A stretch of 43,981 nt of DNA, counting the filler, from Sphacelaria rigidula (lineage: Eukaryota): the NCBI GenBank assembly GCA_964200075.2. It is 2 parts of 2 records of this genome, joined end to end, with 100 filler letters (N's around TTAATTAATTAA, not from the genome) between each part and the next. Parts side by side here need not be neighbours in the genome. Positions count along the whole stretch, not along the records: positions 1 to 21,943 come from CAXNAA020000373.1; 1 more part is not named here. The stretch is one strand, 5' to 3'. The notes under the pieces were generated by a model that had not been told where the DNA came from, did not search any database, and saw only the letters and a program-made list of their open reading frames with translations. This document shows positions 1-43,981 of this stretch, in pieces. The translations under genes were made by a program, and so were the position numbers. Position 1 is the first letter of the stretch; each line of letters begins with the position of its first letter.

Positions 1-52
1 TTCTTCATCTTTCCAAGAAGAACGCGTTGCACACTGCTGTTTGTTTCATCCG

Positions 53-396
53 TCCGTGCACATCATCAACCACTCACGACACAACATACCCATGACTCAT
101 GGTGGACCACTCCCACACGGACACGGGCTAGGAAGTCTGTAAGCTGTAGGGTGTCCCACCATGAGCGACGAGCCCGGTGTGATCACAGGTCCTTCCTCCT
201 TCCACACCTTCTCACGACAAGCTACTCGTATTTCATCCGTGCACATCATCAACCACTCACGACACAACATACCAATGACTCATGGTTGACCACTCCCACA
301 CGGACACGGGCTAGGAAGTCTGTAAGCTGTAGGGTGTCCCACCATGAGCGACGAGCCCGGTGTGATCACAGGTCCTTTCTCCTTCCACACCTTCTC
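53..396. repeat. Two-copy tandem duplication, 183-bp period
   Basis: gcacatcatcaaccactcacgacac starts at 58 and 241. gtgtcccaccatgagcgacgagcccgg starts at 151 and 334. The copies are nearly identical. Confidence 0.95.
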
Positions 397-469
397 GCCT
401 GAGCAAGGTGCGCCGTCAATTGTGATATCGCGAGGAAGGCAAGCCTTCATAATAATCCAATGTATCTAT

Positions 470-2621
470 CTGTGTTTATCTCTCACAAGGGGAAAGAACA
501 CTTCCCTCATCCCGCCAGTCCCCCACGCTGGCAAAGACAACAAGTTCGTTCACTTAGAGGAACAGCGCACCGCCTGAGCAAGGTGCGCCGTCAATGTACT
601 ACTCACTCTTGATTGGTCGTCCAGACAGTCTCCACCCTCCTTTGAGGTGTCTGTACCGTCCTCTCATGTCCCCCGCTCGAGTATACTCCTTCAACTCTCT
701 GTATACACGTCCATATATTTGTCCACCCCAACTTAGATCACCTCTTTCACCTTTTGGCATGCTGCTCGCAATGTGCGTGATGTCGGTTTATCTCGTGATG
801 GTCCCAGTCGCACCGTTGATCTCGCCCTTTCCCTTTCACTCCAAGCCTGTTCGAACTCCGTTCGGATGCCAGCACCCTCGAACCACCCCGGTATACGTGG
901 CTTTCGGGTCAGACGGGGTACCATCTTTTCAGCGGTACTCACGAGTGCATTGACAAAGTTTGTAGCCATTGAGCTAACTGTATCGCAAGTATACTCTGTT
1001 TGAGCTCGCTGATGATGAGCTGGGTGAGCTCCTTACGTTTGTCGGGATCAGATATTATACCCGTTTGTCGATCGGTGTACGCCCCCATTGGGATTCGTCG
1101 AGGTCTGTTTGTGTGCGAAGCGACCAAGGAGCCGCACTAAGGCGCACACAATGTTGTGGTCAGAGTCAGGTGGGTTGGGGGGTTGAAGATGGACGGTGAC
1201 ACTGCGAACAAACCTGCAGTGAACTTGCCGTGTGAGGATGCAGGTGATGCCTTTCTTGTCCGCGGGGCGATTCGCGTTGAACGTACGCGAGGTCTTTCCC
1301 TTGGGAGTGGAAATGAACGTGTTGACCAGGTCAAGCCTGTTGTCGCCTGCAAATTGTATTTGAGAGGTGCCGTTACTGTCGTTGGATCGGGAGTCCCGGC
1401 AGTATGCTCCCACAATTTTACGTTCCTCCTCGCCTCTTCGTACTCCAGTCCTTGCGTTAGCGCCTATAAAATAAATAGGTGATGGTTGTGGGGGATACGG
1501 TTCACAATGCTGTCTAACTCAGTCCAGAACACATCTCTCTCTTCTCTTGACTGTGGAGTGTCTGTAGGGGCATATGCAACTATAAACGTTACAGCATACT
1601 TCGTATAATTTACCCGCGTGGTTGAAAGTCATTGACATGAGGCGCTCGCTGATGATTGCCTGAGTCCACGTCGCCTTGCTGATGATCGAGTCCTTGACCG
1701 CCAACCCAACCCCATGTTGTCCAGCCCTTCCCTTGCCCCCCTCCACCCCGCAACAGAAGACACGATATCCCGCCGCATGAAATTCGGTTTGACCTGGCCT
1801 CCTCGTTTCCTGTAGTCCGATGACGTCACATCCGACTGCCTGATATTTTGCAGGACAACCTCCGCATGGCCAACTCCGTTCTTTCCCGTGAGGGACAGTG
1901 TACGGACGTTATACGTCGCCACTGTGAGTTCCCCAGTACGCGACCTACCTCTACCAGAACGCGACCTAGCTCTAGCCTCCTCTATATTCACACGTCTTTT
2001 CTCTTTGCTCAGCTCTGCTTCTTGGTCTGTTTCGCCTCCTAATTTTACGGGAGAGCTTTTTCCTGCTCCGATTTTTCTTTGTCACGTCTATCATGATGCT
2101 TGAGGTGCTTGTTGGTCTCGCGGGGAGGGTGCAGCCTTCCCATCCCGCGTTGGCCGCTGTCTCCAGTCCGCCGAATCTGGTGCTTACTCACATGTCCCTC
2201 ATCTCCATTAACGTGCTTTCCGTGACAGTGTCTCAACGCCGGGTAAAAAACGGCAGCTGCGGGGTTCAATTTGGTTCCCGGTCTAGGGTAGAACTCCGAA
2301 GCTGTAGGATTGAGCCTGGACGTCAGCACTGTCTGCATGACCCACTACCTAGACTATGTGTTGCGTCACCACTGACACGAAACATAGGCAAGCCAGTAGG
2401 TCAACTTACCCTTTCTGACTTATTAGTTGTGTTGTCGATGGGTTAGCCTACCCCGACACAACCAAACCCAGTCGGATGGCGGTCGGGGGGAGGAAAGTCT
2501 CCTTAGTGCTCTACAAAAACACACTTCAGACAGTGTGAAACTATGCTGACAACACAAGAGGGGTCAGGCAGGCGGCAAAGACCACGAGAAGAGAGAACAG
2601 TACGTTCGTTGTGTCTATGCC
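470..2621 (-). mobile_element. RTE-clade non-LTR retrotransposon, frameshifted, retains AP endonuclease and linker but lacks RT
   Basis: Minus-strand frames give the APE motifs in order across about 1930-1140: VATYNVRTL, DVIGLQETR, HGVGLAV, ISERLM, VAYAPT, NTF, DSDHNIV. A linker follows (KPRIPGW). No RT motifs are seen before about 595. ATCTAT flanks the element at 464-469 and 2622-2627. Confidence 0.88.
2497..2621 (-). ncRNA. Candidate HDV/CPEB3-like self-cleaving ribozyme at the RTE 5' end (imperfect copy)
   Basis: Elements appear in the correct order: P1 GGCAUAG/CUUUGCC, L3 UUCUCGU, J1/4 GC, branched P4 closed by CUGC/GUAG, J4/2 C-U-A-A, then GGAGAC. P1 and P3 each carry one mismatch and P2 is weak. 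Confidence 0.4.
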
Positions 2622-2934
2622 ATCTATGGTTGAATTGTCAGGACCAAAATGAAAATGCGGCTAGACAGCGAGGTAGACCATCTGTAGTTCACCAGTAGGG
2701 GGGAAACGTGACCATTTTGATAGTCGGGATTGGTCAGAGTGGTCACTCCGTTCCTCTCGGGCCTCGTTCCTGGCTCTTGATTTTCCACGGGAATGTTCCA
2801 AAAACACATGGTTGACTTGGTAAGCATTTCGGCTGTTCTGCAAATAGGCCGCCGCCCCCCTGTCGAACCCCCCCACCCCCCCCCCCCGGCGGCCGGACAC
2901 GAACACGAGCCCACAGGCGACGAAGGGAACGAAC

Positions 2935-3300
2935 CCAGCAGTCATGTAGTGGAAGGATGTGAACTATACAAGGAGGAACAGGACTTGCTAAAGGGGGGAA
3001 ATACGGGACGTGAACGAAGGTGACATGAAATCGTTTGATGCATTAGACAGAGGGGAGAAAACGATGGCTATACCAGGAGATGGATGGTGGCCACAGACGG
3101 CGAAACAGGACGGGAATGAGATATGAAAAATATTTTTGTGTAATGTATGGAAGAAACGTAATGAACGCCGGGATGTTGAAGGTGGCTCTTTTAGGAGTAG
3201 GAGCGGTGCTCCGTCTCGAAGCTCCGTCTCGAAAGGGGTGCGTGGTCAATGGTCAAACGACTAAGGCAAGCAACAAATGAGTACGCCCCCCCCTCGCCCC
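2935..3300 (+). mobile_element. 3' fragment of a second LINE family (C-terminal Cys/His region and 3' UTR)
   Basis: Encodes SHVVEGCELYKEEQDLL. Aligns by eye to 43570-43981 (aaaacgatggct, gtatggaagaaacg, ctccgtctcgaaaggg, ggtcaatggtcaaa, gactaaggcaag). Confidence 0.8.
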
Positions 3301-3597
3301 ATGGCAACCCCCGGATGTCTGTGGACTGTCGGTCAGAGAACCTGTTCCGAAGCGACGCTCGCGGTCCAAGGTAGAAGGCGAGAGTAGTCTATCTGGATCA
3401 TGCATTATTTTTCGAGTGGAATTGATGCCGATTCAATAGACGTCCTTTTCTCGTCGTCTAAGAGTCGATAACACCCCCTACTGATGCCTTTGTGCTACCC
3501 TTGTGCTGGAAATATGAAACGAACCGTTTTGCTGGGCTCGATATCAATGTAACCCTTACAAGATTTGCGATTTTTTTGCCGCTTGCTCTTATGCCAG

Positions 3598-3674
3598 GTG
3601 TGGTTGAACATTCCCGTGGATAAGATGGAGGCTATCAAGGAGGTCGTCGGTATGCTTCACAACGCCAGTTTACT
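3598..3674 (+). CDS. GGPS1: GGPPS exon ([25 protein letters not shown])
   Basis: ccag acceptor, gtaagg donor, ends in phase 2. Confidence 0.93.
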
Positions 3675-6600
3675 GTAAGGGCAAATTGCACACACACCAA
3701 GTTGAAGCACGCAGTGCTCCGGAGTTTCTCCCAGAAATGTAACACGTGTTGACAAGCTCGCCAACACTCGACGTGGCTCGCAGTCTTGTATAGTGGTACG
3801 TGTAACCCGGACCGTTTCACCTCCTGGCGACATGCAACCGAAACCGTGCGCCGTAGAGCAAGGCATTGTCCACCAACTCGACTAAACAGAGATCGTAAAG
3901 CGCAACTCTTGTCACATCAGTACCAGGATATATACCATGCAACGTCGTTCAGGTGGGATTTCAAGTTTATCGTACGGTGGCTAAAGCAAATCACTGGAAG
4001 GCGTTTGGTGTGGATCGTACGGTCACACCCGTATCCTGCTCTGTGATTCCGCTACTTGAGACTCGTCAGTTGCCGATTGACACGTCGCAGGTTGTATTTG
4101 GTAGCAGTTTGATCGCAAATCATCTGATGATTTTCACTGTAGGACAAGTCGTGTGTAAACTTCGGATAATATCCCATCGCAATAATGCAAGAGCAGACAA
4201 CCGCACTGTCGGGGATCATTTTGTCGTCGGCGTTCGCGTGATGCTGCCGCGTAGGGTGGACGATATCGAAGACAACTCAAAGCTGCGAAGAGGGGTACCT
4301 GTTGCGCACTCCATTTATGGCGTGCCATCCACGATCAACACGGCCAACTACGTGTACTTCCAGGTGGGGACAAGAAACACGAGGTTGCGTGCCTATTCTG
4401 TAGATACATGGACAGCGGAGTCATATTCCTTCCGTGAGAGACAAGGTGTCTGACTTCCACCCTGTAGTTATGGTTTTGATCAAGAGTGACCCGGGTGGGG
4501 GGCGGGACCACGAGCCCAGCCACCCCCCAACTGACCGTTCCACGTCAGCTAGCAGTGACATGTCAGTAACAAGACATAGATAGCGTGGCACATGGTCAGG
4601 GAATCAGGTGAGTTTACATGCGGTGGAACACGAGGGGACTTATTACCAGCACCAACCCCCAGCTTGGTGAAATGGGCTGTGGTTCAAGCTACTGCAAGAA
4701 ACTCAATACCGACATTATCCAGTTCCACATACAGTATCACGAAGGCTGTACAGGCTGGTTCATGGTGAACGCCTAGAATTCATTCCACCGTGTTTTCTCA
4801 CGCGGTTTATTGGAGTTGGTTAGACCCTGAAATTATGAGATGTCAAATATATTTCAATATATGTTTTTTTTTCTTCATTTCGCCAGATATCCGGGGTCCC
4901 GGGGGTCGCATGGTCTCATATGGTCTCGTGAGACCCCGGTTATCTGGCGACAGAAATAAATATTAAACCCTATCCATGTAAAGTTTTCAATATCGCATAG
5001 TACAATTGCGCGAAATATCACGGCCATATCCCAAAAAACCGCGAGAAAAATCGCGTTCATGTGAAGTCAAGGGTAAAATAATCTGCTGAACCTCCTAGTT
5101 ATGTAATTCGAGTACCAAACCGACTCTTTTATTGCTCGAGCTTGCACCGGCCGTCTGGAATCACTTTTCGAGTCACGTAACGGAACTTTGTACAAGCAAT
5201 CCTTGGACTACCCCAGACGCGTACAATTTTGTTCTGTTTCAAGGCATTCTGTACCCGCTGTGGGGGGCCTTCACGCCTGGACCCCCGAAGCCGGTAGAGA
5301 GCGGGTAAGCTTTGAAATATTCTTCGACGGTACTTCACTCATTTGGAGCCCACATCTACCAAAATACGAAGTTTGAGGATGATCGGACTTTTCTACGACA
5401 GGCATGAGGGAAACCGTCACGAGGCTTTCTGGGTCTTGATGCATTTTTCCAGGGGAAATCCGACGACGCCAAATCCCACATCATCGAAATAACTTGATCA
5501 TACCGACCGTTTTAAAATATGTTTTTTGCTTGAGGTTTCCTAGCTGGTGGCGGTTACTAAGGTTTGATCCATGATGAGATAGAGTGAAAATTGCACACCC
5601 TGTACAACGATGACTAACAACTGACTAAGTTAGTTGTTTGTCGACAAACTACCGGCTAGTTGTTTGGAAACAACTACTGTAGTTGCGCACGATTCTGAAC
5701 AGTTGATTGTTTGATAACTAGTTGCACACGATTCTGAACAGTAAGTTGTTTGAAAACAACTAATTGCACACGATTCTGAACAGTTGTTTGAGAAGCAACT
5801 ATCAACTATTGTAGATGTACAGGGTGCGAAAAATTGTGTCGGGGATGCACATTTTTTATTTTTGAATAATTTGAAGGCTCTTAATTGGCTAAGAGACATG
5901 TTCACTACAAGTGCCATAAATATAGCAGAGGACGCAGGGAAAATTCTTGCTATGCCAAACTGTTTGCTTGCACGTGGGGGTCACTATGATACCAAATCGG
6001 GTCAGTTTTGCGTTCTGTACCCAGTGGGGATTAGTTTCTGGGCATTCACGCTGAACCACCCTGTACGCATCAAACGGACCCACTTGATGAACCATACACT
6101 ACCTACAGTAGTGCCTTCATTGCATTTCGTATGAAACGACCAACATAATGCAACTAACGTCGAAAACTTTTCTCGCGTTTCATGATACGAGGATCAATAG
6201 GCGAGTGTGGCGGCAAGCTGAAACCGAGTGATTGACCATTTTTTGCACATTTTATGGTGTTTATACCAGATGATCGAAAACAAGGTGTCATATATGTGCA
6301 AAATCAACGGTACCGTTGTGTGTGTAGCTGACAATGTTGCCAACACCACGTACCCACTTTTTATTCGGACTACGAGTAGCATGACTGCGCTGTAAAATCG
6401 AGGTTGATGGGGTGACATTTACCCTCATTTTCGTGAGGCAACTTGGTAGGTCGGATCCGTACGGGGGACAACACGCATGAAGGAGTTGATAGCTCCACAA
6501 CCAAGAGGCAGTGCCGAGATCAGCTTCGACGGAATGGCTCCATCCCTAATTCGGTCGACACTGCGAATCATGCCTCGTTATCACGATGTTTCGAGCTCTG

Positions 6601-9146
6601 AACCCAATAAAAACGCTTTCATGCTGTGTCGTAACCTATTGAGATTCATATCGTTTGTCGGGTGCGAAGGGGAAGCGGGAACAACACACATCTGTTGTGG
6701 ATATGGTATGCTCGGGAAGCATGCGATAGTCGCAAAAATATCCAGCCCTCGTGCAACAACCCCAAGGCTGGCCCTTACTTAGCTGCCAACGTCACGCCTG
6801 CTTTGACGGCTCTCTGTCGAGTATGTTAGAAGTTGCGACAGCGCGCCTATGCTGCTGGGATAGCGCAAATTGCTGCCTTCTTACCGACCACTGACTGCTG
6901 CGCGAGAAAAAAATTACTGAAAATTAGTGTAGACGACTGTAGCAAAAATGACAACTATTAATATTACTGAGTATAGACGCCACTCGTCACAGACAACACC
7001 TCTGAGCTGCTGACGTGATCGAAAAACGGTGTTAGCCAATCTTTCAAGTCCCAATGGAGCGCCTAACAGGGGTGCACCACGAGCAGTAACAACGACACGA
7101 ACCAGCAGTCTATTGGGGTGTTGTAGCGCTCGTCACGAACGACGACAAAGAGTGTGCTGTTTGGGCAGTTATGTTGTACACTGTGTTTGACTGATGGGCA
7201 GGGTGGGATCGGTCTGTGCAGTACAAATATCATCTCGAGGGTACGTTGATCCACATTGGGGTCGTACGCCGAACTTTTGAGCGCAAATACTCGGCAGAAA
7301 ATGTCCCATATCGCCCACGTCCCACGTCTCGCTTGTTGGTCAAAAGAAGGGTGCTGCACCGTGTGGCGTTGCATATGGTTTGGACCAAGTGGCCGTGTGC
7401 AGGTCTGTCATCGTCGATTTCCTGTGAGGAAAAAACGGCAGGAGCATAACCTAACTTATACTTTTTTCGGCACAAAAAAACGACTTATTTGATGAAATTA
7501 CAGCAAAGGTGCTAGGCCCCCGTTTCCAATGGCAACTTGAAGAGGGTAGCCGACAGATTACTGTAATATATATATATATATATATACATATATATTGCAC
7601 CGTGCGGTGGGTATGCAGTGATCAGTCAGGAACGACAACTAAGACAAGAGAAAGATTTCACGACATTTACAGGAACGAAACTAATCTTAGCCATGTCGCC
7701 AATATAAGTGCCTATTTCAAGGTTCTATGAGTTTCCACCCTGTACGGGCTGGGCCGGCCTAGAGGCGGAATTGTAGTCCGCAGGCCTATTCGTCGGCCAA
7801 TATTCATAGCTGGACCCTAAAATTTGGTGTGGACAATGAAAAGGGCACAGTGGAGAAAATTATGTGTGGACTCAAGTTTTCTTTTTTCCATAAGTTGACG
7901 GCGTTTTACTGGTACCTGAAAACCGATGAATGCCTTTTACGCATGGAAAAAAAATTGGGTCCATGCGTTTTTTTAATCATTATGCCCTATTCATTGTCCA
8001 TATCAAGTTTTAGGGTCAAACTCTAAATATCGGCCGGCGAATGGGCAGTTTAGCAACCGGGTCGGTAGGAATTCAAAACAGTATTTTGCAGGCCACTTAC
8101 CGGCCCACGTTTGGTGTTTGTGTATTGAATTCTTGTGTGGGATCTCGCTGGGGCATAATGAACCAAAGAAGTGGGTCTGTGTTTTTTTTGTTTTACTTTT
8201 ATTCAGCATGCCTCTGTGGTTCTCCACGCCAAGTTTCAAGTCACAGTTCTAAAAAATGAGCTAAAGAATTGAGATAAGGCCCAAGAGCGATGTTCGTTTC
8301 CCCTCGAAACTCCCTAAAATATATATATATATATATATATATGAAAGAAGCTGTTTTATTTTATTTTATTATGCACTAGAGGTTCTTCATCATACGATAT
8401 CCTAGAGTTGTTAACTGGTTTGGCTCACCAGTTCACTGGTTGCAAAAAATTACAACTAGTTACAGTTATCAGTTGAAACTGGATAACAGGCGGCGAAGCC
8501 ACCCCGCGACTCCACCAGCGTTGCTTGGCAAGGCAACGCGGCGGAGTCGCGTAAACGGCTGGTTAATGTCGTTTTTGTCGACTCTTCCTCATGCTCCGGT
8601 ATCATATTTGACCAGCCACCACTGAACCCTTATCGCTTGGTGCCGACGTAAAGCAAAGCACACACAACAATGCTACGAAACGCAGTCTTGCTTAACATTC
8701 AAGATCCGTTCAATTAACAACTGTCCGTGCCCAATCCCTTTTATTTTTGAGAATATACTTGTATTGTCTGCGATATTCGTGTCTACGTCTAGGTGTGTGC
8801 GCTATGCGGTCATGTACTCGCCACTGTGACAGTTTCCCCACGGTCATTGTAGGAAAGTACTTCGGAAATATTGACTTGAGTATGACACATAAGTACACAT
8901 TACACTTTGGAGTATGACACATGTGTCGGGTGAAATAACTGGTTCAACTGGTTACGAAACCGATCACTTAACCAGTTGTACCAGTTAACTGTAACTGGCC
9001 AGTTAAAGTGGCAGCCAGTTCACAACTCTAATAAACGGTGAATCTCAGTGTAGATGAATTGAAGATTGTTGGCTAGGTTGACTCGTATATCCATGCTGCA
9101 AAACAGGATGAATACGCTGGCCATTTTCCCAGGAATGCCTTCTGTC

Positions 9147-9195
<49 letters not shown>

Positions 9196-11097
9196 GTCGT
9201 CCCATTTATTCTGGGCGCCAGTCTACCCCTTTCGGGATATGTGGGCACATCAGCCACACAGGCGTCTGTACAGGTGGAAAATGAAGTTAAAAAAAGAAAG
9301 GCAAGCCAGACAACGCTTCAGACTGGCTACATCTTGCCCTGCTCGGGTAGCCGTTCATGGATGCGATCCGCTAAGCCAACGGATACAGCTTCCATCACCC
9401 AAGCCTTCTTACGGCACCCGCCGTTCCACGCCCCACATTCTCGAAACCCATGTCAATCCCCCCAAACCGCGAACTCGATATGTCGGCACAGGCGCTGGAG
9501 CGTACTCACGGGCTAGAGAATCCGCAGGCCGTATCGTGCTTCGTTCAAGAATTGCTCAACCTTCACCGGGGCCAGGGTCGGGACATATTATGGCGAGACA
9601 TCAACCGATGTCCCACAGAAGAAGATTACGAGTCCATGGTTCTCGACAGTGAGTTCCATGTAGGCGAATTTCAAAGCAAACGTAACGAACAGTTTCTTTT
9701 AGGTTCGAGCGTCGCTTGGGCGAAGAGGGAAAACGATCGAATGGCAGCGGTTAGGGGGGAGTTTGTCATTGTACACTAGCTCATCTCTAGTCCGACTTTT
9801 GTTACTCCCAAGAACTTCCATATTCTCAATCCCGCAGTTCCACTTATCGCGCGACCCATGGCGGTGCGAGACCTCAACCCTGTTTTGTGCTACCTTTCTC
9901 ACTGTCCCAATGCGCCTTCTGCCCTGCCGGACAGAGACAGGGGGACTGTTACGGCTGGCGGTCGGTTTGATGCAGCCATTCAGTGAAGACCGGCGGGATT
10001 ATACCCCGTTGCTCAATCAACTTGCTCTGTACTTTCAAATACGAGACGACTTGATTAACCTCGCCAGCGCCGAGTACATGAAGGCGAAGAGCTACTGCGA
10101 AGATCTGACGGTGAGGTGTTGGAGGTGTCGGAGATACGAGCTCGAGGTCGCGGTCTTCTTCAAAAGTTACAATAAATTCATCGTGCGTCAGGTCCTTTGT
10201 TGTCGACTAGTAACACTTGCTTCGAGACGGCGGTCACGTATTACACATGCCAACAGTTGAAGTATTTCCCCCCCAAATGCCGTACATCGCTTGAGTCCTG
10301 ATCTCCCCAATTTTCCGCCCTTGTTCCCCTTGCTGTGTTCTCGAAATGTTCCCAAGGAGGGTAAATTCTCGTTTCCCATTATTCACTGCGTGAGAGCTAG
10401 GCCGAACGACCACCGCCTCTTGAATATTCTCAGACAGAGAACGGATGACGTGGAAGTGAAGAAGCATGCCGTTTCATGGGTGCAACAGTCGGTGAGTTTG
10501 ATGGCGTGATTCGACTGCATGTTCACGCCGAGAAGAGGTGGTACACCTCGCCGGTATTTCCCTCGTGCAGTTGTGTAGTTTGTTTCGTTTCAACCGTGTT
10601 GCGCTGGCTAGCGCGAGGTCGGAAACAAGAAGTTCAACTGCCCGTGCTTTGAGTGCTTCATAGGCAGGATGGCTGAGACTTGAACTCGCATTCGGTATCA
10701 TTCGCATCCACGTTTGACTACCCCAAACCATCCGTCACCAGAGAGAATTGGCAGGGTCGGCAATCCCCAGCGCTCAACATTCCTCAACTTGAACGGTGAA
10801 ACACGGAATGACAATCTTTGTTCTCCACTCCGTGTCATGTCTCCACAGGGCTCTCTTGCCTATACTCGCGATCGACTAGTGAAACTGAAGGACAGCATAA
10901 CCTCCGCTATTTCTTCGCTCGGCGGACACTTGGGACTCAGCCGACTGATCGAAGGTTTAGATCGGCAGTTGGACGGATTGAATGTTGCGGCCACTCCGCC
11001 GTCTTCGGATAAAGGACGTGGAGGGGAAACAGCAAGCGGTAGCATCAGTACCAGCAGTGGCGAGGGGCAGGCGCCATTTACGCTTGAATCATTGTAA
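3598..11097 (+). CDS. GGPS1: Geranylgeranyl diphosphate synthase, type III (GGPS1/BTS1-like), 5'-partial, 6 exons in window
   Basis: join(3598-3674,4255-4363,9492-9648,9935-10110,10357-10491,10849-11097) = 903 nt, 300 aa plus stop. All introns are GT-AG and phases match. Motifs: [21 protein letters not shown] (FARM), [42 protein letters not shown] (SARM), [15 protein letters not shown]. Confidence 0.96.
4255..4363 (+). CDS. GGPS1: GGPPS exon with FARM DDIED
   Basis: gtag acceptor, gtgggg donor; [36 protein letters not shown]. Confidence 0.95.
5284..5515 (+). repeat. Interspersed repeat fragment shared with 36865-37115
   Basis: Shared blocks in the same order: cccgaagccgg, tttgaaata, ttttctacgacag, tccgacgacgccaaa, cgaaata, accgtttt. 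Confidence 0.75.
5630..5805. repeat. Minisatellite, about 40-bp unit with internal palindrome
   Basis: ttgc(g/a)cacgattctgaacagt occurs three times near 5683, 5722 and 5764, interleaved with agttgttt...aaacaact hairpins. Confidence 0.85.
5820..6063. mobile_element. Possible Tc1/mariner-type MITE
   Basis: TA-CAGGGTG at 5818-5826 and CACCCTG-TA at 6057-6065. The TIR match is only 7 bp plus TA. Confidence 0.5.
7788..8042. mobile_element. Foldback/palindromic MITE, about 255 bp
   Basis: Arms of about 100 bp are reverse complements (attcgtcggcc/ggccggcgaat; ggacaatgaaaagggca/tgccctattcattgtcc; ttttttccat/atggaaaaaa). Confidence 0.8.
8403..9030. mobile_element. Non-autonomous DNA transposon, hAT-like ends
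   Basis: TIR tagagttgttaactgg / ccagttcacaactcta (15/16). Subterminal AACTGG/CCAGTT motifs are dense at both ends. No 8-bp TSD is retained. Confidence 0.7.
9151..9194. repeat. (GT)22 microsatellite
   Basis: Read directly from the sequence. Confidence 0.98.
9492..9648 (+). CDS. GGPS1: GGPPS exon (ALERTH...LHRGQG...[13 protein letters not shown])
   Basis: acag acceptor, gtgagt donor. Confidence 0.95.
9935..10110 (+). CDS. GGPS1: GGPPS exon with KTGGL and SARM
   Basis: acag acceptor, gtgagg donor. Confidence 0.95.
10357..10491 (+). CDS. GGPS1: GGPPS exon ([10 protein letters not shown]...LRQRT)
   Basis: caag acceptor, gtgagt donor. Confidence 0.93.
10849..11097 (+). CDS. GGPS1: GGPPS last exon (GSLAYTR...LGGH...stop)
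   Basis: acag acceptor, TAA at 11095-11097. Confidence 0.92.
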   Translation, partial: GSLAYTRDRLVKLKDSITSAISSLGGHLGLSRLIEGLDRQLDGLNVAATPPSSDKGRGGETASGSISTSSGEGQAPFTLESL

Positions 11098-11705: not shown

Positions 11706-13135
11706 ATGTTGGTATGGACGTGGGAACTCAAACATCAATACGGGCAGAAGGATTCGAACTCCACGGAAGTGACGCTTCAAGTAGGGAGTTCACGCCGCCC
11801 CCTGGTCAGCAAGGCAAACACTTGCACGTTGATGCTGTTCTCCGGAGTATTTCCAATGTGAGGCCGTATCTCTCGTTTTTTTTCGACTCGAAAACATGCG
11901 GTCGAATCGAATTGGTCGCTACGAGGCCGTATCAGATACGTCCACGCCCTTCATGTTCCCCGATGGCTTCGATTCCATTTTATAACAATTTGCGCGGGAC
12001 GGGCAGGGTCGAAAACAGAAAAGCTTAGCTTTTTCGAGCGAAACGAGCGGCGGAAATGAGCGGAGGGATACATGATGAGTTCCATGTTGCAGACAACCAT
12101 GCCAGAAACCACCCTCTCACGGTACCATGCAAAACCCACCTGGTTCATTAGCAGCTACCAACTCAACCCTGCAGTGAGAGGGGACCAACACCACAACCCT
12201 CTTGGCATGGCGTGTTTCTTTTTTGTTGGCGAAAACTTGGGCATCTAATTTTGTGGCAGCGTCCACTGACGGAGTTAGTTGCATGTTGGGGTGGACGACC
12301 GAGTTGCGAACAAGCTCATGGAGCGCAGAGGGAGTGCAAAACTGCACGTGATCAAAATCTTCTCCGCATCCTCCTGTATGCAGAGTTGAGACAGCTCTGC
12401 TGTCTGTATGTCACGTCGCCCATTTATTTTCCACACCGCGCCTGCATGCTCTACGAAATACTATGCACAGGCGGCATGTACTTGCTGTACTGCTGTCTAT
12501 ATTTAATACAAGGAAATAAGTACCGCTTCACGAAGTTCGTTTCGCCTCTTCGATCCACAGCGTGCAAATTTTCTCGGACCCAAACACAGCAAAGCGAACT
12601 AAATCAATTCCGCCGCACGAACTCGTTCGAGTCGATTTTTTTTAGAAGACACGGGCTGGGAGAACGTGCCAGCAGCGGGACTTTGCGGGCACCGCGGTCA
12701 CGATGTCTCATCGCAGTACTCCCCCATCCACCCGCCCTTTCAATTATGGCAAGCAACTAATGAGTACGTCCGCCCCCCTCTACATCCTCTCGCCTGCCCT
12801 TGGAATTTGCCCACGGCCATACTCTACACTTCCCGCAAATGTGCAGGAAAGGCCTTGCGCTCTACTTCAAGTGACATTCGTACCCAGCTTTCCACCCATC
12901 ACGCTGGCACTCGCCCATCATGGTTCATGCCTGAAGATAATTTCAAGCCGGAATCAATACCACCTCGCAGCAACGAGTAGCAGCGACGTACAAGAGAAAT
13001 CATATCTCCGGCATCGCCTGCGCAGAAAATAACAGTCAGAACCGACCAACTAGACACGGGAAAAAAAAAAATCATCAGGAGACGTTGCCAACACCGAAAA
13101 TGATCATGTACCGCACCACCTTTTGGCACACATTG

Positions 13136-20449: not shown

Positions 20450-22880
20450 GAATATTTTCGTATTTGGACTGGGAACTGTTTCTCGAGTGATCTCACCTCA
20501 TCGTGGCCGCTGAATTCCCTGTTCTGCCGGGCCCCGTTGGCCACACAGTATCGTGTAGTCGCCATGAGGGAGGCACGTAATGTTTGTTAGGGCCCCGCCT
20601 CGATCAGGAAATGCGTCCCGATCCTTGACAGGCTCGAGCTCTTTCCCCCGGCATAGCTAGTGACAAAACGGAACACGGGAAAATGCCCCATGCACCTGGG
20701 CCTCGAATCAAGGTTGTAAACAAAGTCAGCCTAGAAGCTGCGATGGTTGCATCCCCCCTTGTCATCCTGAAGCGCGCACGCTGCTTTCCTCGTTTAAGTT
20801 TCGCGATCTAGCTGAAGCACTAGAGGTCGTATCGTACGCTGGGCTATTGTCGTAGGATATAACTCCACCTGGTTTATCCGCTGGAGCTCGGTAACAAGCG
20901 TAGTACTGGTGCTCTCGAGTTGGTCACGGATTTCAGTCTGACCGGTCGTGTACCTTCTATCCACTCTCTGTCCAGACCAGTACAGCTAACTGCGACAGAA
21001 AAATAATCATGTCAAGGTGTGTATTCAGGGCAACGGTCGTCAGCTGTGCTAACATGTGTGTCTGCTGGTGATCATCGAGTGTCTTCACCATGTTCCCGAA
21101 ATAATTCATCCGCTCGGTGTGCGGTTTGGTTCTACGGTGTCATCCACATTCCTCGTTGTCTCATTTGAAGGAAGTCGCATGTTCTCGATATCTTGGATCA
21201 GCCCAGGTCACCACCGATTTCATCAACGGAGATCTGCGCCCCTAAGTCATATCGCGCTCGTGCAATCTTCGAGCGCCTCTACGGACTTGCTCGCTGCTTA
21301 AGACATGTTGTTTATTCAGCCGATCCCTTTCAACCTTTTAATCCTGTCGAACTCAGAGACACGCAGTCGGTACCTGTGAACACATCATTCGCCATGGTCG
21401 ACGTTCACATTCGGTGCTGCCATTTGTTGTCCCGTGGGTCCCACAGAAACTGTATCATCACACAGTCGTTCTTGACCGTGGCATTTCGGCAGGATGCTCT
21501 TCTCGGGCGGAAAAACTTGATCTGTTGCGCCACCACATATATCCCGTTATTGTTTCGGCCTCCCACGACGTGAAGAGTAGGGTGGACCACAGGACACTAG
21601 AGTATCTCCATAAGGGTTTCGCACATGTCGACCGTAACCGCGTTTGGGGCGCCCTTTGCGTGATACTTGTGCATGAACATCCAAGGAATGTCCGCAGGCG
21701 AACGACTGATGACGCTCGTCATTTTTTTCCGCCCCTATTTCTCGCATACCTCAAGTTACCGAAATATCAAAATATCCCCCCTTCTTTGCACACGGTACAT
21801 CTCACTCATTGGGTGGAGTTAGTCCTGTTGTCCTTGGGTTGCAAGGATTTTCCCAGTAAAGTCAGGAGAATCGAGTCATCCTACGATAGGGGGGGGGTAT
21901 TTTGGGCCATTTGTTGCTCGAAATTTCGAGTCAGATCGTCGTTNNNNNNNNNNNNNNNNNNNNNNNNNNNNNNNNNNNNNNNNNNNNTTAATTAATTAAN
22001 NNNNNNNNNNNNNNNNNNNNNNNNNNNNNNNNNNNNNNNNNNNATCGCTGCACCCGACGAACACAGAGGGAACAGTGGTATGATGTGCCGTGATGTGTAT
22101 TCCAGGGTGTGTGTTGTTTTCTTTGATGTGTCACTGGCGCAGTCACCGGCGCAGCACACAACAACAATCATCACCGTCGTTGCACCCTGCAAGCAAGTCT
22201 GAAAGGAGATCACGGCGGCGGGGCGAGTACTTCTCGACTCTTGTGACTCACCTTCCTCCGACCTGCTGTACGTCTTCGGGGAGCTTCAGTGCTGCAAGTT
22301 CCACTTGGCGCAATGTGCTCCAGATATTCTCCCGGAGAAGTACTGCACCGTTTACTGTTGTTAGCTCACCTGGTGAAGTGCCCGTGTACACTGGCATCTT
22401 GGAGGTGTTTGCAATGCGACTGCAAACCCGCTCGTTCACCTTAGCCGATTGATTGGCTTCGGCCCCTTCGACCCCTTCATCTCGTTTCTCAATGCTTCCC
22501 TCAGTCCCTTGTCTGTCCCGGTTTGACTGATTGCCACGGTTCGTTCTGGGACGGCTCGTGGAGTGGTATGTCACGCGGGGCAGAGTGCGGCGAGGGAATG
22601 CGGAGCGAGAGCGCGAGGGTCGGGGGGAGCTACAGCGAGAACTACAAGAGTTCCGCGATGTAGAGCGGCGGCGTGATATAGAGCGACGGCGATACAAACG
22701 AGAGCGGGAGCGAGAGTCGCGGGAATCGGAACGGCTTCGGTGTGCCGAGGAGAATCCGTAATAGGAGCGGCGTCTATCGTCACGCCTTACTCGTCCCTCA
22801 CGGCGTTCAGCCCCCCTGCCAGACATTTTTCGATGTTTCGAATGCGCTGTACTTACCAACAGCGATGCAGCGAAATGCAA
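20450..22880 (-). mobile_element. Highly decayed Ty3/Gypsy-like LTR retrotransposon (gag-like ORF plus RT/RNase H relics), interrupted by an assembly gap
   Basis: Remnants appear in pol order on -: PPYSS...NNNG...NATVKND, WDPRDNKWQ, NVDD (about 21140), EGTRP, GDATIAA, THFLIE. Upstream is an R/S-rich ORF (22248-22880) with gag-like KMPVYTG. There are many stops and frameshifts and no LTR was found. Confidence 0.5.
21944..22043. other. Artificial scaffold linker N44-TTAATTAATTAA-N44
   Basis: Exactly 100 nt; the central 12-mer places stops in all six frames. Confidence 0.97.
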
Positions 22881-26580: not shown

Positions 26581-28466
26581 CTGTGAGAGGACGCACGGAA
26601 AATCGATTATGTACAATACTCGCGCAGAAGAGGATGGCATCGAAGTTAAATCCGGCGAGACTGGATTATGGCATATAAACGTGAACCGTGTTCACGCTCT
26701 CGACGCAAGTCGATCGCATGCGCAGCGCGTGGTGAAAGGCAAAAGCGTTCATTACTCGACAGTTCGAGATGATTCAGCCAAAGAGGCGGCAGGAGGTATG
26801 AGCCAGTGTGTGTGGGAGGGATCTACACCCCACGAATTCAGCTTAGATGCCATCAGACTTCGAAGCGAAGTTGGATCATGTGCTGAGGCTTCTTTACTGA
26901 ACTCGGGGTAGTAGGGATGTCCAGCGTTTTGAGAGATTGACGCGTGTTGACCGTGAGTACGAGAATTCAGCAATGTGTCCACACTGACATCTGCGCGCTA
27001 GGTAACTCCTGTGCCTGCTAGTACAGGGGACTTCCCCGCCGATCTGGACGGCATTCGTTATTGCCTCTACCCCCTCCCTTCCCCTCTCCCGAAAAAAAAA
27101 AGCAAAATTGTGGTCGAGTTAGATCGTATCGTGCGGGTTGGAGAACCTCAACTCCGAGGGTGGGGGGTGATCGTACTTTGAATGGCGAGACACGCATAAG
27201 GCGGTGTAAATCGTGGCTGTCTCTGGAAGTGGCAATACCAGGAAAGGAAGCGAAGAATTAGGAGGTTACAATCTACATGCAAGAGTATTAGCACGCTTCG
27301 AGCCGAAAAGTCTCAGCAGGTGGAAGATCACCGAACATATCATGGCCCCTTGCACTTGGTGATCGCGAGCGTGGTCCGGCGAAAACCCGGCGTGCTCCGT
27401 CCCGACTTTGAAGGGGTGCGAGGTCCATGGTACACGGCTTCGGCATGCAAGAACATGAGTACGCCCCCTCTTCTCACCGAAAAAACTCCAACAAAATGGG
27501 GGGAACGGGAGACACACGTCACGCTGTGCTTTGTCAGAAGATTTGTATACCGTGAAACATATCAAAATGTGTGTATGTGTGTGTTATCAGATATCGTGCA
27601 CTCGCCTGACCGGCAAGAGCATTCTTCTTCATTTGGTCCCCCTCGTTGTGGCTCGTCGACACCACCTTCTTCCACGCTTCCAAGCTTGGCAGTCCCTGGG
27701 TCGACCGACGATGTACAGATGCGGTTGGCAATGGCGGATGGTTTCATTTTCATGATCGACCAATGGAAGCCTGCCCTGTCAAAAACTAGTGTTTAACCCT
27801 TTTTGGTCCTGGAAATGGAAAAGTGTGGATTTCGAGGTGCTGTTTTTTTAACGACGTATGGTTGAGTATTTACAGCTTTCACGCAAAACAATCAGCCCGA
27901 GGCGTCTTTTGCAGACCTGTATAAATATGTGCCTCAGACGCAGTTGGCTTTATTTCTTTTCCGACGATCACTTACTCGATGCAGCATCAGCATCATCGAG
28001 CTTCAGCACAACAACAAAAGCTTGTGCACAAGGGGATACATTCTCAACGGAAGCTTGTGCCGTGTGGGGACTTGCAATAAACGATAACCTATAATAGGAG
28101 AACGTCGGCGAAGTTCACCGCGGCATTTCTTGCTATTCGAGACTAACCACCCTTTGCTGTTGTTTTCACCACGCTGCTTAATGCAGCTCCGCCCGACAAG
28201 TTCGTCAAGCTAACTTTGTATTTTTCCAGCAACCACATAGCTTTCCATCCTGTTCTTCTCCTTGGTACCTTCTTCCCTTCCTCGTCGATGAAGTCCATGC
28301 CAAGGAAGGAAAAGATGCTCTTCAGCGTGCCTATCGGATCCGCAGCCACGTCTTCAAGAAAGACAACCTTTTCGGAACAACAGGCACATAAGAGACAGGG
28401 ATTGATCGATCGACACATCGGGTTATCATACATCGACAGATCCCCAAGGGATCCAGCCGTGCATGT

Positions 28467-42560: not shown

Positions 42561-42879
42561 GGCCGTTTGCTTCCCGAGTAGTACAGCAGCTAAACACTAA
42601 TGCACCAAGATTTTCACCTCTCTGATCTGGAGCATTTTTTCCGCAGGAACAGCACTATGTCAACACCGACCACTCACACGCTTCAATAAATGTACTACAA
42701 TAATAGTAAATTTCATGTGAGCCAGGTCGTTGTCTTTAGGTGACGCGTGTATCCTTGGTTGATATGATTCGCCCGATTACGGTCCAGTTTTGACGGATGT
42801 GGCGTTCGTGAATCATTTTCCCGACAAACAGTACCCAAAATCGGGCTCCATTCCCACTCGTAACTGTTCTTGGGATGCA

Positions 42880-43981
42880 CACATCAATCCAGTACTGTAC
42901 CGCGAAAGGGAAAGGCCCATATAAGCAAGGGGGGCGTGATACCAAGAAACTCGCACGTCGACACTAGGATAAAGAGATGTAATCTGATGAATGTGATTGT
43001 CCCGAAGCTAAAATATGCAGTAGAAATATGGGAAGGGAACGCGACGCTGGTGAAGCAGCTAGCTAGCAACAGTACAATGACAGCAGCTAAAAAAACACAA
43101 CTTGAGAAAAAATACATAAACGGTAACATAACGTAAGGAAATACCAAGAGACCGTTGTTGGCCATAGTTGATAGGTTGTATGGAAGGAAGGGACGAAAGG
43201 GCAGACTGAAACTAGGTGGAACGGCGTAGTCGAGAGTATGGAAGGACATAAGGGGGAACCAAGACGAGATAGCGTCCAAATTGAATGTGGGGGGTACAAG
43301 ACAGGGGTGATAGGTATGAGAGAAATAAGGGGAAAACAAAAGATAATACGGACAGCTGACGCGGAAAAACACCTGAAGATATACGAGGGCTGAGACACGG
43401 GTATGGGATAAAACGATATTTGATCGACCCAACAGACCACAAGGAAAATCTCAAACTGCGATTTCGGGTATAAGACCTGAGCCTGCCAGAAAGAAGCAGG
43501 TGTACCAGTAGTCGGGTAGAGGAGGAGGTGGATGGACAGAACTAACTGCCCCTGTGGCATCGCAATGAAGAGTAAAATTCATCTAATGGCAGAGCGTGAA
43601 CTACACAAGTTGGAACGGAACGTCTTAGAGGAGGGAATGTGGGAAGTAGACGGAGGTGGCATGAGAAAGTTTGGTACATTAGCTCTAGACAGTAGCGGGA
43701 AAACGATGGCTGTACTAGGAGATGATGGTGGCCACAATCGGCGAAACAGGAGGGAGATGAGGTGTGTATTATCAAATTTCTCGTGCCATGTATGGAAGAA
43801 ACGCAATGAGCGCCAAATGCTGGAAGTGTCTCTATTAGGACTAGGAACGGTGTTGCGTCTCACAAGGAAGGGGTGGTCAGATGACGATGGTGACCAGCGA
43901 ATACATCTCCCCCCCCCTTCCCCCCCCACGTGCTCCGTCTCGAAAGGGATGCGTGGTCAATGGTCAAATGACTAAGGCAAG
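42880..43981 (+). mobile_element. LINE 3' portion (post-RT region, C-terminal CPCG..H region, 3' UTR), degenerate, runs off the window
   Basis: HVDTRIKRCNLMNVIVPKLKYAVEIWEGNATLVKQL, LKLRFR, NCPCG...IHLMAERELHK. The 3' end matches 2935-3300. Confidence 0.85.

Follow-up and report, generated by a model that had tools for sequence, protein, structure and literature searches.

How the protein of a long interspersed nuclear element (LINE) comes to prefer the RNA that encodes it is a long-standing question, and it is raised in concrete form by a retrotransposon copy in a 43,981-nucleotide stretch of the Sphacelaria rigidula genome (assembly GCA_964200075.2; two parts joined end to end), which is referred to here as the window. 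In human LINE-1, the poly(A) tail and the poly(A)-binding protein (PABP), in particular PABPC1, take part in the formation of the ribonucleoprotein (RNP) and in cis-preference. To our knowledge the L1 proteins themselves carry no PAM2 motif, the link being made through the RNA or by direct binding of poly(A) by ORF2p, and we know of no dedicated protein-protein link, poly(A) and PABP being what has been implicated. The minus-strand open reading frame (ORF) that begins at ATG 2338 of the window is the N-terminal leader of a decayed, high-copy retrotransposon of the type that lacks long terminal repeats (non-LTR) and encodes an apurinic/apyrimidinic endonuclease (APE), that is, a LINE, and it opens with two genuine PAM2-type short linear motifs in tandem. 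The question posed by the locus is whether these form a docking site for the MLLE domain of PABP at the first-translated end of the single protein of the element, which, unlike human LINE-1, would then encode a dedicated PABP-docking peptide. We consider this prediction about evenly balanced between being right and wrong.

Tandem PAM2 motifs at the N terminus of this ORF had been proposed in the initial annotation, within 2240..2338, an interval that spans both motif cores (2320-2282 and 2275-2237), and the proposal is borne out by two kinds of motif scan. The 97-residue ORF, whose N terminus reads MQTVLTSRLNPTASEFYPRPGTKLNPAAAVFYPALRH... and which is preceded by an in-frame stop codon three codons 5' of the ATG, matches the Pfam PAM2 model (PF07145) in two stretches with an E-value of 1.6e-07 and a score of 31 bits, the gathering cut-off being 20, and its stop-to-stop version scores 30.9 bits. 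Both motifs also fit the pattern LIG_PAM2_1 of ELM. Leu3, Asn4, Ala7, Phe10 and Pro12 are present at PAM2 spacing in both, and position 9 is Glu in motif 1 and Val in motif 2. Chance resemblance in a decaying pseudogene would be in keeping with the shortness of PAM2 and with the dead state of the window copy, but among 200,000 shuffles of the ORF at least one match to the pattern arose in 38 and two matches in none, and translation of the whole window in all six frames (87,958 residues) yields four matches, both leader motifs included; these counts indicate that the pair is real and not a product of chance. Dozens of diverged relatives moreover carry the motif in the corresponding position, and an origin by chance, being already contradicted, is scarcely credible. 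The other six-frame matches, at 42584 and 30525 on the plus strand (QQLNTNAPRFSPL and YRLSTIAAGFFLG), are isolated, have no family evidence behind them and probably are due to chance.

The two motif units, each of 15 codons, follow one another with a period of 15 residues and no overlap and are alike at 25 of 45 nucleotides. Seven residues are common to both (L, N, P, A, F, Y and P), with different synonymous codons at five of them, which is the pattern expected of protein-level selection acting on an old duplication. PAM2 is known to bind the MLLE domain of PABP; it is reiterated in eRF3 and in the plant Ataxin-2-like proteins CID3 and CID4, where the two motifs overlap, and is present in the Ataxin-2 of protists and algae (PMC4105795). 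Like the window leader, eRF3 (GSPT), CID3 and CID4 have PAM2 repeated in succession within an N- or C-terminal tail, but in the window the motifs are separate 15-residue units, and the protein that bears them is the endonuclease-reverse transcriptase (RT) protein of a mobile element as opposed to a host translation factor.

The identity, position, frame and inheritance of the motifs are matters of observation, and comparison with relatives of the same, dual-motif subfamily indicates that they were inherited from a working ancestor of the dead window copy. In a word-indexed search with the leader among proteins of similar length, four of five candidates matched at 65-73% identity with the motif region largely kept; the same search among longer proteins scored none of 63 candidates. 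A profile of five leaders, run against 1.84 billion representative proteins, gave 37 matches at E <= 0.001, all of them short ORF fragments of the same leader. Sorting of 41 leader matches assigned 24 to this dual form, two to a single form and three to a third form, 12 being left out because the N-terminal part is missing from them or no form could be assigned (P0128, P0139, P0142, P0146, P0149, P0150, P0152, P0154, P0156, P0158, P0159 and P0161). The ELM pattern is found twice in three of the dual-form leaders, once in eight and not at all in 13, so that 11 of the 24 have at least one match; the 13 that have none fit representatives of old, decaying copies. Beyond residue 160 the pattern has no match in any of 161 proteins (59,794 residues). 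Continuity of frame is seen in P0134 (256 residues), where a single frame holds the two motifs, the basic patch and the endonuclease start, and in P0128 and P0154, which run from leader to endonuclease in one frame. P0002 and P0003 were considered as further in-frame continuations into the endonuclease and were rejected, their tails being an out-of-frame reading of the basic stretch. The ORF of P0143 consists of an antisense translation of the leader followed by a sense leader with both motifs, as though two 5' ends were joined head to head, as an inverted pair, in that contig.

A second line of descent was reached through the endonuclease. A search with the fragment 1051-1464 among longer proteins gave 155 matches in 312 candidates, and the counts for this sister lineage rest on the 120 matches listed, 47 of which contain the start of the endonuclease, as recognized by a pattern of our own. 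Among the matches listed, 12 of the 47 ORFs open with M-x-F-(K/T)-LNP, 111-114 residues upstream of the endonuclease and in frame with it. These define a sister subfamily, about 64% identical to the window copy in the endonuclease, whose N terminus typically is MGFKLNPDAVEFFP and starts as M-G-F-KLNPDAVEFFP; its single motif aligns with, and is homologous to, motif 2 of the window. The sequence upstream of the single-form Met in P0155 reads ...RCLWPRLQTALVVMGFKLNP, which may, as an impression only, be a remnant of motif 1, in which case the dual form would be ancestral.

The other 35 of the 47 ORFs among the matches listed open below the motif, at MSKQQ..., MGLLNP... or MARARSR.... Many database ORFs start downstream in this way, including P0043 (a cluster of 2648 members), and such starts, like the structured 5' leader described below, are what might be seen if the motif region were untranslated in active elements, with the real start close to the basic patch, and if its similarity were preserved as RNA or DNA sequence of the 5' leader. 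However, the downstream start residues are Val or Leu of longer ORFs (SVSKQQ, RVGLLNP, NVARARS), from which we infer GTG or TTG starts assigned by a prokaryote-type gene caller, and the 35 downstream starts are probably a gene-caller or frameshift effect. Furthermore, the 12 sister ORFs and P0134 open from a motif-adjacent Met and continue into the endonuclease, and synonymous differences at conserved residues point to constraint on the protein. We therefore regard a start of translation below the motif as highly improbable. In less decayed relatives the motif shares a frame with the endonuclease, in P0134 for the dual form and in the 12 ORFs among the matches listed for the single form; a third subfamily has only a degenerate version of it.

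That third subfamily is about 53% identical to the window copy in the endonuclease and includes the clusters of P0092 (217 members) and P0095 (868 members). Its leaders begin MASAVHCQLNPQVRLFVP..., in which QLNPQVRLFVP aligns with motif 1 but has neither Ala7 nor Glu9, and the site of motif 2 is unrecognisable. The only match of a metagenome scan with P0043 was L001, a decayed LINE 27% identical to P0043, and the only match of a genome-contig scan with alignment A4 was L002, which is 40% identical to P0043 in the RT and has a Cys/His-rich N-terminal part; no PAM2 motif was found at the 5' end of either. Scans of metagenomes with alignment A1, and of genome contigs and viral contigs with P0043, gave nothing, and the ESM Atlas gave no usable match. 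A sequence search of the PDB with the leader returned two chance-level matches, in a collection from which chains of fewer than 20 residues are absent, so that PAM2 peptides cannot appear in it.

Several points weigh against PABP docking, and it should be recognized that PABP binding and everything downstream of it are read from the sequence of the motif. None of the five third-subfamily leaders fits the ELM pattern, which means that this subfamily has multiplied without a canonical motif and that retention of the motif is not universal. Most relatives are weak as judged by the Pfam model: in 61 relatives, four of which are leaderless because their ORFs open within the endonuclease or immediately ahead of it, scores of at least 20 bits were obtained for four (P0001, P0002, P0125 and P0132) and of 16.6-19.7 for six, the rest, 12 of the 14 sister-subfamily leaders scanned among them, having no match at E <= 0.01, and the best-scoring pair of all is that of the window copy. 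The 35 downstream-starting ORFs are uninformative, counting neither for nor against the claim. The ten key positions of the motifs have a conservation of 0.78, as compared with 0.64 at 74 other positions, in 24 dual-form leaders (the window and 23 others, P0143 having been dropped because a cut at 125 residues removed its leader), but the permutation p of 0.0024 is only indicative, the sequences being related and selected by profile. Nor is the motif uniquely conserved in the leader, since the blocks HCHGKH, VSKxQIR and GRRGxGRLxP are conserved too, about as well as the motifs between subfamilies. The 3' end of the element is absent from the window, so a poly(A) tail is not visible there. Finally, in the AlphaFold model of P0060, built on 33 aligned relatives, residues 1-71 have a predicted local distance difference test (pLDDT) score below 50 and almost no secondary structure, but the whole model (mean 48.1) is too poor for disorder of the leader to be claimed from it.

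One alternative is that the leader contains a PAM2 look-alike, inherited and translated, that binds no PABP in the host and may either be left over from a captured fragment or serve to dock some other partner. The success of the third subfamily with a degenerate motif would suit such a leader, as would the scores of most relatives below the Pfam cut-off and the comparable conservation of the other three blocks; against it, L, N, A, F and P are retained with PAM2 spacing in each of two adjacent copies, for the most part through different codons, KLNPDAVEFFP is kept in 14 of 16 sister leaders, which fit the ELM pattern (the misses being P0032 and P0160), and the key positions are more conserved than the other positions of the leader. 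On this evidence we consider a look-alike unlikely, if still deserving of attention, and retain PABP docking as the preferred reading.

The copy that carries the motifs can be followed from its 5' leader into the region 3' of the endonuclease (Table 1). The leader ORF is in frame -1 to about 2054, the basic stretch in frame -2 and the endonuclease in frame -3, so that two frameshifts are needed to join them in the window copy; this agrees with the initial annotation, in which a basic, Arg-rich stretch was said to lead through frameshifts into an AP endonuclease. One window fragment matches the Exo_endo_phos model with 24.7 bits, against a cut-off of 24.5, and relatives reach 54.5 bits. By tblastn, the window remnant matches residues 81-528 of the 1163-residue P0043, and position 593 corresponds to residue 528. 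No reverse transcriptase was found in the window, as the copy breaks off at about 593, before the RT; in relatives the RT lies downstream in the same ORF, with an RVT_1 score of 106.8 bits in P0043, and P0104 comprises leader, endonuclease and RT. With several frameshifts and no RT part, the window copy is dead.

Table 1. Positions of the leader, its motifs and the remaining parts of the LINE copy in the window
Feature	Position	Strand and frame	Remarks
Leader ORF of the retrotransposon protein, 97 residues	2045..2338	minus	ATG 2338, stop 2047-2045
PAM2-type motif 1, SRLNPTASEFYPR	2282..2320	minus	Residues 7-19; Pfam and ELM pattern
PAM2-type motif 2, TKLNPAAAVFYPA	2237..2275	minus	Residues 22-34; Pfam and ELM pattern
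Arg/Lys-rich stretch, KKLSRKIRRRNRPRSRAEQREK	1996..2064	minus, frame -2	In frame between leader and endonuclease in P0128, P0134 and P0154
AP-endonuclease remnant with several frameshifts	1051..2006	minus, starts in frame -3 at about 2006	Exo_endo_phos match
Linker 3' of the endonuclease	593..1050	minus	Copy ends at about 593
5' untranslated leader	2339..2926	minus	Genomic repeat, as is the coding part

The layout of P0043, with the endonuclease near the N terminus, the RT in mid-protein and a conserved C-terminal tail in one long ORF, is that of single-ORF APE-RT LINEs, which we take to be RTE-like. The difference from such elements lies in the leader of about 112-130 residues that opens with one or two PAM2 motifs. 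Immediately ahead of the endonuclease start, the SRSG/RSRTG stretch, of which relatives have one copy, is doubled by a 21-bp tandem duplication at 1933-1974; a 183-bp tandem repeat (1.9 copies, 98% alike) is found at 53-396, where the LINE copy breaks off; and on the minus strand a 25-nucleotide string at 596-572 recurs at 420-396.

Upstream of the ATG, the initial annotation had placed a ribozyme candidate. The 222 nucleotides before the AUG (2339-2560, minus strand) are predicted to fold more stably than every one of 200 shuffles (z -2.93), and a long hairpin at 2403-2339 runs right up to the AUG. Rfam gave no family match for the whole window at the gathering score or for the region 2200-3300 at E <= 10. 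The 5' leader is structured, with nothing to support its designation as a ribozyme. LINEs with self-cleaving ribozymes at the 5' end, reportedly like that of hepatitis delta virus or, in Schistosoma, variants of twister, share with the window element a structured 5' leader before the ORF, but here no match to an Rfam ribozyme family was obtained. In the sister subfamily part of the 5' leader seems to be conserved, to judge from the translated read-through of P0155.

The position of the motifs suggests how PABP docking might serve the element. In the single protein of the family, the order is leader, basic patch, AP endonuclease and RT, with the PAM2 pair at the extreme N terminus; because the motifs lie beside the initiator Met of the only protein, they would leave the ribosome first and be exposed early in synthesis, while the rest was still being made. 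The exposed motifs could dock on the MLLE domain of cytoplasmic PABP bound to the 3' tail of the RNA under translation, and docking would tie the new endonuclease-RT to its own RNA, favoring cis-preference and RNP assembly; it may also aid translation or stability. In its strongest form, the proposal is that this LINE family has solved the problem of cis-preference with a host-mimicking PAM2 peptide that clamps the nascent endonuclease-RT to PABP on its own RNA, and that one lineage gained avidity by duplicating the peptide, which in another lineage is being eroded. This fuller scenario we put forward only tentatively, and with more doubt than conviction.

A motif that binds PABP could also act in defence or regulation. 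PAN3, Tob and proteins of the GW182 type are PAM2-bearing deadenylation or silencing adaptors, and by occupying MLLE the leader might compete with such adaptors or, in the manner of Paip1, boost translation of the element's RNA. The same motif evidence underlies this explanation and the tethering of the protein to its RNA; tandem motifs would raise avidity or competitiveness, and help with translation might be useful to an RNA whose 5' leader is structured up to the AUG. A single protein molecule for each RNA, however, would be a poor competitor for bulk PABP, and the sequence offers nothing by which defence or regulation could be told from tethering. We judge a defensive or regulatory role to be improbable, and tethering through PABP docking remains the function that we propose for the motifs.

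Should tethering be correct, no retrotransposon before this one would have been known to encode a ligand of MLLE, and the element would provide a natural handle on how LINE proteins find their own RNA. The presence of a canonical PABP-docking peptide in a LINE family would make this idea directly testable, and retrotransposons would join the mimics of host PAM2 ligands. If binding fails, what is left is an ordinary decayed LINE whose leader is conserved for some other reason or none. A literature search, with subscription journals outside its scope, returned no paper connecting PAM2 or MLLE with any protein encoded by a retrotransposon. In other respects the element is an ordinary single-ORF APE-RT LINE, and PAM2 is an established motif; it is their combination that looks new.

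The abundance of the family was assessed with contigs from four public sequencing runs, mapped on positions 1-4600 at 80% likeness. In run X1 the summed depth over 617-2926 is 7,158-32,126, as compared with 70.9 in the single-copy flank, a ratio of about 100-450 that is not a copy number, and the depth picture in run X3 is similar. The depth marks the family as high-copy, its 5' leader included as far as about 2926. Labels of the runs include 'algae metagenome' and 'protist metagenome', which make an alga or protist the probable host. Runs X6 and X7 were taken as RNA by guess; a GT..AG joint from 3674 to 4255 is present in both and absent from X1 and X3, which means that X6 and X7 hold spliced RNA. 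Record 19 of X6 is an exact match to 1007-1317 of the element, and record 32 of X7 (4,182 nucleotides, depth 140.6) spans 2114-2370 with 51 differences. These contigs give a weak hint that the family is transcribed, and only a weak one because carry-over of DNA is possible in X6 and X7.

The 5' end of the LINE copy is abutted by a separate, extremely abundant repeat at 2927-3542, which is also present at 43579-43981, 27394-27468 and 12745-12776. Over this repeat the summed depth amounts to 2.5-7.8 million, where the single-copy flank has 70.9. Many contigs loop from 3293 back to 3221, giving a unit of about 72 nucleotides, and some join 2889/2890 straight to 3221; other copies are flanked by poly-C. 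No tRNA and no internal repeat was found in 2800-3700, and Rfam gave no match to the repeat in the scans of the whole window and of 2200-3300. A 21-nucleotide dinoflagellate spliced-leader motif has no match in the window at up to three mismatches, a result that weighs neither way on the host. The window also contains two runs of N of 44 bases each, at 21944-21987 and 22000-22043. In the single-copy flank, a polyprenyl synthetase gene split by introns lies on the plus strand at 3899-10257, with Pfam matches on three ORF pieces.

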